This document shows positions 3,606 through 8,166 of a stretch of DNA of 64,000 nucleotides, in pieces. The first letter of the stretch is position 1. Every line of letters begins with the position of its first letter. Made by a program: the position numbers and the translations under genes. Source of the DNA: Podarcis cretensis (taxonomy: Eukaryota). Location of the stretch: assembly GCA_951804945.1 (NCBI GenBank), contig OX638156.1:44516001-44580000 (forward strand), read 5' to 3'. Below the pieces are notes generated by a model. The model saw only the letters and a list, made by a program, of their open reading frames with translations. It was not told the origin of the DNA and searched no databases.

Positions 3606-4136
3606 TGCCAGGGACAGGCAGGAGTCTGAAGGGTGGGCAGAGGAAGCATGGGGCAGGAGGATGATCCACGGGAGATGGTCTATGATGTTTGGGGTTCTGT
3701 GCCCACAGTGAGGCAGGGGGAAGTCCATGCAGTCAAAGACAGGAGAAGAGAAGGGGGGAAGAGGTGCAGGAAGGCACAGAGATGGAAGAGACGCTCCCAG
3801 AGAGAGTCAAGCTGTTAGAATCTCCTCCATCCCCTCTCCCACTGTCTCCAAGGATGTGGAGGGGCCTAAAAGCAACAGGAACAGATGGAGATGAGCACAG
3901 GAGAAGTCACTGAAAACCATGTCGGGGGGGGGGGTTTAAATGTGCTGGAAGAGGCATGGCCCGCTGTTGTACCAACTGCTGTGACTGAGCACAGGTCTGA
4001 AGAAGGAAATGCCCAGCTATTAAGCAGGAGTGGTGTATGTGATTCTTGCACCACAGAAGCAGGTATAATCAAGCTTTGCCAATAAAGAACTACTGGTAAA
4101 CTTTCAATCATGTTTCCTCCTTTGGGGGTCTAGACA
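3606..4136 (+). mobile_element. Solo-LTR-like element
   Basis: TG...CA termini (TGCCAGGGAC / GTCTAGACA), purine-rich body and AATAAA at 4081, about 55 nt before the end. No TSD found. Confidence 0.4.
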
Positions 4137-4378
4137 TGCTCGAGAGATCTATGACTGAGTAGAAAAGCTATTGGAAAGCTCTCTAATTGGCACTGTAATG
4201 GCACTTTGATTACTCAAAAGTATATACATAGTAGCATCTACTGATGGATGTGCCTCCCATAGCCTAAGCTGATTTCCTACAAAGCGTGTTCTCCTTCATG
4301 GAGAGCGCATGTTGCGTTGGGGTCTAACAAGACATCCCACTGTTGCTGGGTGGGTAAAAGAGAGTTGCCACAATTACG

Positions 4379-4482
4379 ATTGGGTGCTTCTTGTTGTTGG
4401 GGAGATTTTGATGTTGCTATTTTGTGATTGACAGCCACAAGCTATATATTCCTTGCGTGCAGTGTTGAGCTTCCTCTTTTCG
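4379..4482 (+). promoter_or_regulatory. Putative Pol II core promoter of the repeat
   Basis: Reverse CCAAT (ATTGG, 4379-4383), TATATAT (4443-4449) and pyrimidine initiator/TCT-like CTTCCTCTTTTC (4470-4481) about 27 nt downstream of the TATA start. Confidence 0.35.
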
Positions 4483-4670
4483 CTGCACGCATCAGATCAC
4501 CTGCCCACCCTCCCTGATTTTAGGGTGTTTTTTGCGTTTGACCTTGCTATGCCTGTCATGGGGTCATCTGCTTTTGGGGCAGGGGCCTGGTAGGAATTTT
4601 GTCCACTTGGCTGATTGGCTGGTACCATTTGGTTTTTGCCTACTGTGTAGCAAATCATCACAACTTGTAA

Positions 4671-4978
4671 GGTTGCAGTTAGGCATTGGTTTTATAAATT
4701 GGTTGGTGGAGGGGTATGGATTGGCTGTGCATGCCCCTCCAATGCTGCTGCTGTAAGGGTATTCCATTAAAGGAATCCAGGGGTTTGCCATGCTTTTGTT
4801 CGAACCCCTGTCAAGGGGCTAGGGCCACGCAAGAGCCCCTGGCAACATTTGGGGAGAGGCATGGTACCCAGCTCCATCTCTCTCCCCAGAATGTTTTCCC
4901 TTTCTGACTTCATGGGCGTGCAAATGTCAGTCTGTCCCCATGCGGGGTCAGATGGTCGTAACCAATGCCTAAGCAACC
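4671..4978 (+). ncRNA. Predicted multibranch structured RNA domain (six hairpins, 19-bp closing stem)
   Basis: 4671-4691 pairs with 4960-4978. Hairpins at 4707-4741, 4761-4776, 4778-4810, 4814-4840, 4844-4895 and 4903-4952. Transcription is not demonstrated. Confidence 0.45.
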
Positions 4979-4998
4979 ACTCACATTTTTTGTATTTT

Positions 4999-5075
4999 AA
5001 TAAAGTTGTGGCTAAAATTATGCCTAAAAACTTAAACAAAAATTCTGTTTGAATTGTGTTTTATTTGGGGTGGCT
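4999..5075 (+). terminator. Putative polyadenylation signal with GU/U-rich downstream element
   Basis: AATAAA at 4999-5004, followed by TTCTGTTTGAATTGTGTTTTATTTGGGGTGG from about 5043. Confidence 0.4.
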
Positions 5076-5104
5076 TGGGGACCTCAACACCCAAATTGGA
5101 AGTA

Positions 5105-5456
5105 CCGTATTTTTCGCCCTATAGGCCGCACCGGCCCATAGGGTGCACCTAGTTTTGGGGGAGGAAATAAAGAAAAAAAGCCCAAGCTTCCCCTGACCCC
5201 AGCCCCCAGAACAGGCTGCTATCCGCAAGCCTGGGGAGCCCGGGGGGGACTCCCACTGGGCTCCCCAGGCTTGCGGATATCTGCCCGAAGCCCGGGGTGC
5301 GCTCCGCTGCGCTCCCCGGGTTTCGGGCTGCAGGCTGCTGTCTGCAAGCCTGGGGAGCCTGGCGGGAACTCCCGCGGGCTCCCAAGGCTTGCGGATAGCT
5401 TCCTGAAGCTTGGAGAGAGAGGGGGGTTGGTGCGTCCTATAGGGTGAAAAATATGG
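5105..5456. mobile_element. Tc1/mariner superfamily (Tc2/pogo-like) MITE
   Basis: TIRs CCGTATTTTTCGCCCTATAG / CTATAGGGTGAAAAATATGG (18/20 match). TA TSD at 5103-5104 and 5457-5458. CCGTA termini are typical of Tc2-like elements. CpG-rich interior with three hairpins. Confidence 0.85.
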
Positions 5457-6109
5457 TAGTTTGGTGTATCCTCAAGCCAAGCCAACCTTGGAGACTCCCG
5501 CCCACCTGCCTTGTCTTCTTTCTCCACCCACTCTCTCCCACCCCAACCCTCCTTTCCTTCAATCCCATTTACCTAGCTAGTGAGGCAGTTTAGAGGACTG
5601 TCGGGTGTGGGAAAGTAGGTCCCATCTGGGAGGGAGGCTGGTTCTCTGAGCTACAGAAGAATTAAGAGATCATAATACTCAACTCATAACTGAAGCCCCC
5701 TGAAGTATGAACTTAATAACACATCTAGTAGCATCAGTTTACAAGTGTGGTAGCACTGTCAAACTTCTGTACTTGTTATTTCAGGCTCATCATCATTTTG
5801 GGCTCTCATGCTCCTGTAATCATTTGGGGGAAGTTCTGTGTGCATGCTACCAGTACAAGGGAGTATACTGATCCTCACAACTTTGCTGCCAAAATAGCAG
5901 GAACTGCAATAGCCTTCAATTGTGTGCACAAGTATGTTCACCATTCCCATGAGACTCCCTCCAGAGACCCTAACAATTTTACTGCAATTGTCTAGAAGAC
6001 GTTCAGCCTATATGAATCACTCAGCTATAAGACGATTCCTAGTATCATTCGTTTATTTCCACAAATTAAGTTTTTAAGACCATTTATTTCCCAGGTTACA
6101 CATACAAAC

Positions 6110-7814: not shown

Positions 7815-8166
7815 CCCTACAAAGAAGACTGAGAGGAGATATGATATCCATCTTCAAATATCTTAAGGGCTGTCACATGGAAGAGGGAACTTGCTTGTTT
7901 TCTCCTGCTCTGGATGACAGGACTCGAACCAATGGCTTCAAGTTACAAGAAGGGAGATTCCTACTAAACATTCAGGAAATTTTTTTGACAATAAGAGCTG
8001 TGTGGAAGTAGAACAGACTCCCACGAGAGGTGTGGACTCTACTTCCTCAGAGGTTTTTAAGCAGAGCCTGGATGGCCATCTGTCATGGATGCTTTTGCTG
8101 AGATGCCTGCATTGCAGGGGTTGGACTAGATGACCCCTGGATCCATTCCAACTCTAAGATTCTATA
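7815..8166 (+). mobile_element. CR1 LINE 3' end (ORF2 C-terminus plus 3' UTR), 5'-truncated
   Basis: Peptide RRLRGDMISIFKYLKGCHMEEG...LFS...RTRTNGFKLQEGRF...FLTIRAV is typical of the CR1 ORF2 C-terminus. It ends GGGGTTGGACTAGATGACC...TTCCAACTCTAAGATTCTAT, the CR1 hairpin plus ATTCTRT tail. Confidence 0.92.

Follow-up and report, generated by a model that had tools for sequence, protein, structure and literature searches.

A solo A-X-B unit of an Ngaro retrotransposon in Podarcis cretensis and conserved structures that may control its parent element

The window, a 64,000-nucleotide stretch of Podarcis cretensis contig OX638156.1, carries at 4283-5094 of the forward strand an 812-base sequence that is, judged by its sequence, a solo A-X-B unit of an Ngaro tyrosine-recombinase retrotransposon. 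The unit was likely left by recombination between the two A repeats, A1 and A2, of a full-length element, and its folds likely control the parent element, through a poly(A) switch, an ENE and a folded junction, as opposed to serving a gene of its own. The probability of this reading is put at roughly 80%. The element itself is of a known kind, and solo AB units are already known. What appears to be new is a set of three structures, namely the fold of spacer X with its 9-mer, a helix at B1 and a hairpin at the B|A junction, which are kept across five clades that are 45-59% identical. No description of them was found in the accessible literature on Ngaro, squamates, ENEs, attC and poly(A) occlusion; Tycowski 2012/2016 and Goodwin and Poulter 2004 may anticipate part of it, and the Tycowski supplements may already list an ENE from a YR element.

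In the proposed mechanism, the parent would be transcribed from a start site within A1, about 25 nt short of its end. At B1, and there alone, the terminal part of the SGNH frame is predicted to form a helix with the bases that precede AAUAAA; this helix would make the first poly(A) site less effective and allow read-through of the B1|A2 junction, which is needed to rebuild both ends. At B2, the X 9-mer would bind the bases immediately downstream of AAUAAA and keep the tail close to a U-rich loop, where an ENE-type triple helix would then protect transcripts that had read through, and no others. Once cDNA has been made, its B and A ends would come together as an imperfect hairpin of single-stranded DNA, which the tyrosine recombinase would join to a host site whose last two bases are AA. 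For split-direct-repeat retrotransposons, passage of the first poly(A) site, cDNA priming and integration have little experimental basis in the literature available to us, and the available text of PMC7192593 describes the primer and the recombinase specificity of DIRS-1 as unknown. The three conserved structures are small modules, one per step, and can be tested separately. It is tempting to view them together as a structural code of vertebrate Ngaro elements, in which a poly(A)-skipping fold switch, a tail-capturing ENE that marks only replication-competent RNA and an attC-like folded site for the tyrosine recombinase would be combined, with each solo keeping a promoter-ENE-poly(A) cassette able to make a stabilized 550-nt RNA, but this broader proposal is tentative. 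Identity, architecture, age pattern, conservation, complementarity and covariation can be read directly from the sequences compared.

Identity of the unit and its full-length relatives

The original prediction had placed a feature at 4379-5075 inside an Ngaro-like repeat. The type of repeat is correct, since full-length relatives with split repeats, RT and YR occur in the same genome; the bounds are not, as the genome copies give a span of 4283 to 5094. Dispersed copies are 84-90% identical across the same 815-bp span in a search of the species' own genome, in which 40 of 4831 first-look candidates were scored, the latter number not being the copy number of the subfamily. Exact motifs for the window's subfamily gave 52 and 36 matches, and the subfamily is estimated at roughly 100 copies. 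The ends of the copies are sharp, and in the 30 loci inspected the flanks are unrelated except for other repeats, with neither TG..CA ends nor a target-site duplication. No target-site duplication was found at the window unit itself, where two A's at 4281-4282 are read as the host target. A classical LTR was rejected on these grounds (no TG..CA, no duplication) and because the parents code for a YR. A Helentron-associated element of the HINE/DINE-1 type would share the subterminal inverted repeats, terminal stem-loop, T/A-rich ends and absence of a target duplication on the minus strand described in the available text of PMC4067079; the same ends, however, are the split direct repeats of elements that code for RT and YR, and this candidate was rejected as having next to no probability.

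Comparison of copies, ends and parents divides the unit into repeat A (4283-4499), spacer X (4500-4673) and repeat B (4674-5094), all on the forward strand. Repeat A comprises a U3-like, putative promoter and about 25 nt past the presumed start; it is about 212-217 bp long in the clade and, like B (419-437 bp), occurs twice in full elements. X is present once, between A2 and B2, and its core is the most conserved non-coding part. The absence of a credible ORF, noted at the outset, is borne out by stop-to-stop frames of only 84-97 aa here and by many 1-nt indels in the copies. Rfam returned nothing at gathering score in 4000-5600, and five loci gave only miRNA-type noise in the flanks. The window copy is an ordinary decayed remnant in which pairs of the 9-mer and of the junction arm are broken.

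A Pfam integrase search of the genome gave 19 matches, 18 of them related frames. The 18 YR-anchored 10-kb loci comprise 11 with the layout A1-ORFs-B1-A2-X-B2, six with A-ORFs-B and one with a single B; the 11 full elements belong to relatives that share 72-76% identity with the window unit and to one more distant family. Intact relatives are ordered A1-ORF1-RT-YR-SGNH-B1-A2-X-B2, and the window unit corresponds to their A2-X-B2 at 72-76% identity. Within full elements, A1 and A2 are 99-100% and B1 and B2 97-100% identical. Both elements scanned against Pfam matched RVT_1 (E 2.4e-13 and 4.3e-11), Phage_integrase on the same strand after RT (E 2.3e-6 and 1.3e-6, above cut-off) and, in an SGNH-like frame after YR, Lipase_GDSL_2 (E 6e-4 and 4.6e-7, below the curated cut-off). 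No methyltransferase family was found in them at E 0.01, and neither ORF1/gag-like nor RNase H domains gave a Pfam match, with long ORFs lying at the expected places. Altogether, 19 full 3' ends fall into the five clades, and no full-length parent of the window's own subfamily was present among 67 loci.

The closest described layout is that of Xenopus DIRS-53_XT, which in the available text of PMC9210276 likewise has A1-ORFs-B1-A2-B2, the order RT-YR-SGNH and no methyltransferase, with an A repeat of 236 bp (212-264 bp here). Its B repeat is 152 bp as opposed to 358-437 bp here, and the elements described here differ further by a single-copy spacer of 160-190 bp between A2 and B2. Neither RNA structure nor solos are described for elements of this type in that text.

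Ngaro elements are diverse in this genome, with 1762 first-look SGNH candidates. Among 70 of these that were inspected, 26 have the X motif downstream, 38 have B without X and six have neither; the copies of B without X are likely products of recombination between B1 and B2. Two young full-length copies (L068 and L069, G000:C10) lie about 225 kb apart at the same position of a 186-bp tandem array, and one locus (L034, G000:C3:108630903-108632457) holds two units rearranged into a nested inverted pair. A 428-aa frame with a phage-integrase match of 96.9 bits (L035, G000:C29:4761-5231) is unlike the Ngaro YRs and possibly represents bacterial contamination of the assembly.

Origin and age of the solo units

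The layout of the solo is the expected outcome of losing everything from A1 to A2, and recombination predicts that solos supplant full elements with age. Full elements contain 19 of the 21 A-X-B units that share 98-100% identity with a young copy; the other two are solo. Among 19 units at 88-95%, none has a B1 match, and the nine inspected are all solo. Whole ORF-side ends show the reciprocal pattern: B2 is kept in 19/20 at 97-100% and in 3/19 at 82-95% identity (one truncated copy left out). These identity bands indicate that both deletion products accumulate with age. Motif matches for the window's subfamily number 36, of which 35 come after X and one after an SGNH-type frame end; a motif for ORF-side copies of this subfamily gave no match, and one such copy with a variant base was found otherwise.

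The surplus of solos could be due to selection against long copies or to direct insertion of short cDNA, which these counts do not separate. In the latter case, the B1-A2-X-B2 end of full-length RNA would be reverse-transcribed into a short A-X-B cDNA and inserted by the recombinase, making the solo in part a by-product mini-element. In its favor, every full element has at its 3' end the whole unit in permuted order, and ORF-side copies are outnumbered by solos by at least 19 to 5 in the 88-95% band and by 35 to 1 in the window's subfamily, although recombination between B1 and B2 ought to be the easier event. Against this, just two of the 21 youngest units are solo, and selective loss of long copies would presumably yield the same excess, such that an additional direct route is considered unlikely. 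Recombination between A1 and A2 is the preferred origin, and recombination is also invoked for comparable remnants: isolated AB units of Ngaro in Cafeteria (PMC8547959) and the SIRE of trypanosome VIPER (PMC6681497), which consists of the A2-B2 region plus an exclusive internal part of about 30 bp, are both attributed to recombination in the available texts, the latter of which describes SIRE mobility as open. As far as those texts go, the present case differs in its vertebrate host and in an exclusive part that is longer, is the most conserved piece and folds with covariation.

Transcription signals, poly(A) sites and the folded RNA

The motifs named in the original prediction were found where it had placed them. 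The promoter-like array (4379-4481, forward strand) consists of a reverse CCAAT (ATTGG, 4379-4383), a TATA-like TATATAT (4443-4449) and a pyrimidine-rich initiator (4470-4481); it is a putative promoter by its motifs, from which a start near 4474, 31 nt after the TATA-like motif, would be expected. The poly(A) region (4999-5066) comprises AATAAA at 4999-5004, an invariant 9-mer at 5004-5012, a presumed cleavage site at about 5025 and a GU/U-rich tract at about 5043-5066 (T/GT-rich in the DNA). The U-rich motif at 4589-4644 and a closing helix, 4671-4691 with 4960-4978, were equally in place. CCAAT, GC-rich and TATA-like motifs occur at comparable places in other clades. Of 42 whole solos, 34 retain the pyrimidine motif, 33 a TATA-like motif, 27 ATTGG and 36 the hexamer, and the distance from pyrimidine motif to hexamer is 514-547 nt in the 29 of 42 solos with both ends parsed. 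Promoter and poly(A) signals are combined in one unit with conserved spacing, as had been proposed. The A repeat of the window's subfamily also carries, at 4420-4481, motifs present in 26 and 28 of 42 solos that we take to resemble YY1 and PBX/PREP sites, and the initiator of this subfamily presumably resembles the TCT/5'-TOP type.

A solo LTR likewise holds a promoter and a poly(A) signal in one remnant. In the three Ngaro families compared, A ends about 25 nt past the pyrimidine motif and the poly(A) signal lies in B. Because A holds the presumed start and B the poly(A) signal, the layout that had been taken for a mini transcription unit is the same coincidence as in a solo LTR. The idea of a self-contained gene for a capped, polyadenylated, structured RNA of 550 nt, acting as a non-autonomous retro-RNA or in a role of its own, is in keeping with the maintained spacing of the promoter-like and poly(A) motifs. 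Such an RNA, running from 4474 to about 5025, would nevertheless leave out some 190 nt of A and some 70 nt of B, as well as the B|A junction; solos have no B|A junction, and their transcript would be without what rebuilds both ends. RNA reads were taken from runs labeled as another organism, one that has 5-8% of the sequence words, and in these runs 76-142 reads of 10.5-12.8 million per run matched (108-162 in a second set). In 4/4 runs of each set, reads cover X and B and leave the ORFs nearly bare, and some join X to B, which would suit a 550-nt transcript. Reads also lie upstream of the presumed start and beyond the presumed cleavage site, no pile-ups of starts or ends were seen in these low-depth raw reads of another species, and read depth tracks sequence conservation and the number of solos. 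The gene is thus quite improbable, and a self-contained non-coding or retro-RNA is not supported, the layout being what loss between A1 and A2 would leave. The companion suggestion of a replication or stability module survives in part: a module of this kind fits, though for the RNA of the parent element.

Folding of 4470-5025 gives -215.2 kcal/mol (z -4.82; 0/100 shuffles as low). The reverse strand of the same region also scores z -4.08, so the strand is not given by the z-score alone. Covariation among 27 decayed copies is weak (13 of 200 pairs, covariation term -1.34), and subfamilies were therefore compared instead. Covariation between subfamilies substantiates the predicted RNA structure. 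In repeat B, the multibranch domain (4671-4978) has its closing helix, 4671-4691/4960-4978, kept in all clades, and the B domain scores z -2.1 to -6.1 in 6/6 cases compared with -0.1 to -2.4 for ORF controls. A hairpin in B at 4762-4775 has the same 6-nt loop in 6/6 representatives folded, and this loop is nearly invariant across clades; from its predicted structure, the hairpin is a candidate protein site or kissing loop.

The two copies of B differ in what precedes them. The stretch of B from its closing helix to AAUAAA has its complement in the last part of the SGNH frame, and the duplex energies are -17 to -40 kcal/mol at B1 vs. -4 to -15 for the sequence before B2, the former being stronger in 12/12. 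In 9/12 representatives, at most 1/200 shuffles was as stable as the B1 helix. The best partner for this helix came from the same clade in 12/12 and was the element's own sequence in 5/12. The 25 nt before AAUAAA are predicted to be more paired at B1 than at B2 in 18/18 comparisons; the hexamer itself is predicted to be less open at B1 in just 7/18. The helix is weakest in the window's own clade, where 6, 17 and 18 of 200 shuffles were as stable in three of four representatives. These predictions suggest that an upstream helix weakens the B1 poly(A) site. In HIV-1, a poly(A) hairpin similarly allows structure to choose between two identical poly(A) signals. The Ngaro arrangement differs from HIV-1 and solo LTRs in that both signals lie at the 3' end, 0.8 kb apart, with no TG..CA and no target duplication.

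Spacer X and the junction hairpin

X is better conserved than the repeats even though it is single-copy (93% vs. 84-85% and 84% vs. 74% in two comparisons), and non-CpG variation among 42 solos is 2.8% in its core vs. 10.0% in A. The core fold (4544-4653) is closed by helix P1 (4544-4551/4646-4653), which encloses a small hairpin, a side arm and the ENE-like stem. A hairpin originally drawn at 4539-4566 is present in the minimum-energy fold of the window copy; across subfamilies, the P1 pairing is favored instead. On 19 aligned cores, 96.8% of cells are paired and 6/30 pairs are changed on both sides, the structure having been drawn from these same 19 sequences. Only 3/500 shuffles scored as high, a control inflated by the relatedness of the sequences, and slid controls were 32-53% paired. 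RNAalifold independently recovers P1, the side arm and the lower stem, and two held-out sequences score 62 and 107.5 bits, one with additional compensatory changes. The resulting model gave 38 matches in 87 sources, one per full element. In metagenome contigs, the X motif had two matches, neither of which fits the model, and in viral contigs it had none.

In the ENE-like stem (4589-4644), G-C pairs flank a U-rich internal loop in which U 4597-4600 faces U 4633-4637, a pattern that is the ENE signature according to the available texts of PMC7583470 and PMC12501189. A similar loop is described there for KSHV PAN, plant transposable-element ENEs and Evade, and the position of the present motif, in the non-coding spacer from the ORFs to the 3' repeat of a retrotransposon, is shared with known transposable-element ENEs; the X fold differs from known ENEs in having no Rfam match here. 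U tracts between G-C pairs are found in 19/19 aligned and both held-out sequences. In two clades, the youngest included, the loop is just about U3 by U3-4, and the upper stem shows no double change. The emphasis that had been placed on this motif as the important part of the region is upheld. An ENE whose putative triple helix protects the tail is suggested by the structure model and, if true, an ENE in an amniote-type repeat would widen the range of ENEs past the hosts listed in the available text of PMC7583470.

Downstream of the core, the X 9-mer (4657-4665) is complementary to the 9-mer at 5004-5012, whose first base is the final A of AAUAAA. The two 9-mers hardly vary in 19/19, and the helix between them, being invariant, offers no covariation; its first X base is mutated in the window copy. 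The bases after the hexamer pair upstream with a probability of at least 0.5 in 11/19 at B2 and 5/18 at B1. The ENE-like stem lies about 380 linear nt from the poly(A) tail, based on a presumed cleavage site, and the helix that would tether the two is predicted in 11/19.

It is also possible, if less probable, that the X fold is real and serves as a platform for priming, packaging or RT binding, with an RNA 3' end annealed to the 9-mer priming cDNA. Both 9-mers stay the same in clades that share 45-59% identity, which suggests that their sequence itself matters; the polarity would lead to copying of X, A2 and B1; two clades have only short U tracts; and the available text of PMC7192593 gives DIRS-1 as having no known primer. 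Against this, such priming would first require removal of the poly(A) tail, and none of the 19 aligned sequences has lost the U tracts that lie between G-C pairs. As a separate observation, C is found at 4658 (unit position 378) in 4/42 solos, where the 9-mer otherwise forms a U-G pair with its partner; this could be due to primer copying, subfamily variation or chance. In most clades, a pyrimidine tract and then AG stand at the start of X (4500-4530), with three tandem acceptor-like sites in two far families (L130, about 2290-2380; L060, about 7833-7920) and donor-like motifs after A1 and directly upstream of B1. Judged by these motifs, X-B2 may be a terminal exon.

The last structure spans the natural B1|A2 junction, which as single-stranded DNA is predicted to form one imperfect hairpin in 12/12 representatives (z at or below -2.3 in 10/12; -1.1 and -0.8 in the other two). 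The insertion boundary occupies one and the same position in 12/12, just before an internal loop of 1-2 nt about 10 bp down from the tip. In solos, the halves lie at opposite ends and are paired by RNAalifold: the A half is at 4284-4338, with a terminal stem-loop (4284-4309) and a segment (4311-4338) complementary to the end of B, and the B half is at 5067-5094, the boundary following the terminal CAA. A conventional inverted repeat centered on the junction is found in the window's clade only and is absent from other clades. The exact junction motif had one match in the genome, a solo with a chance flank; young parents differ from the motif.

On the host side, base -2 is A in 29/29 parsed junctions and base -1 is A in 24/29; no base is fixed in the right flank, where the strongest preference is for T at +2 (18/27). 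This one-sided preference fits an attC-like folded-strand site. In the available texts of PMC5027507 and PMC3458562, integron attC is likewise an imperfect single-strand hairpin with little sequence conservation that is used by a tyrosine recombinase, and it shares an exchange point inside the stem beside an unpaired spacer as well as a short A-containing microhomology. The present case differs in being a eukaryotic retroelement and in its internal loop of 1-2 nt as opposed to 5-6. Permuted insertions were found in 0/21 units, which argues against a circle with two equal junctions; a linear strand with paired ends would fit the junction data, and DIRS-1 cDNA is described as single-stranded and mostly linear in the available text of PMC7192593. 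Folded-strand integration at an attC-like junction is suggested by the folding model; alternatively, the hairpin could work as RNA, in strand transfer. If true, a folded-strand site would link eukaryotic YR elements to the strategy of integrons and CTX.

Directly beyond the unit, a separate MITE occupies 5105-5456 of the window, with 38-nt terminal inverted repeats and TA duplications, and is presumably of the Tc1/mariner type. Its internal palindromes reach z of about -11 to -12, far stronger than the fold of the A-X-B unit.
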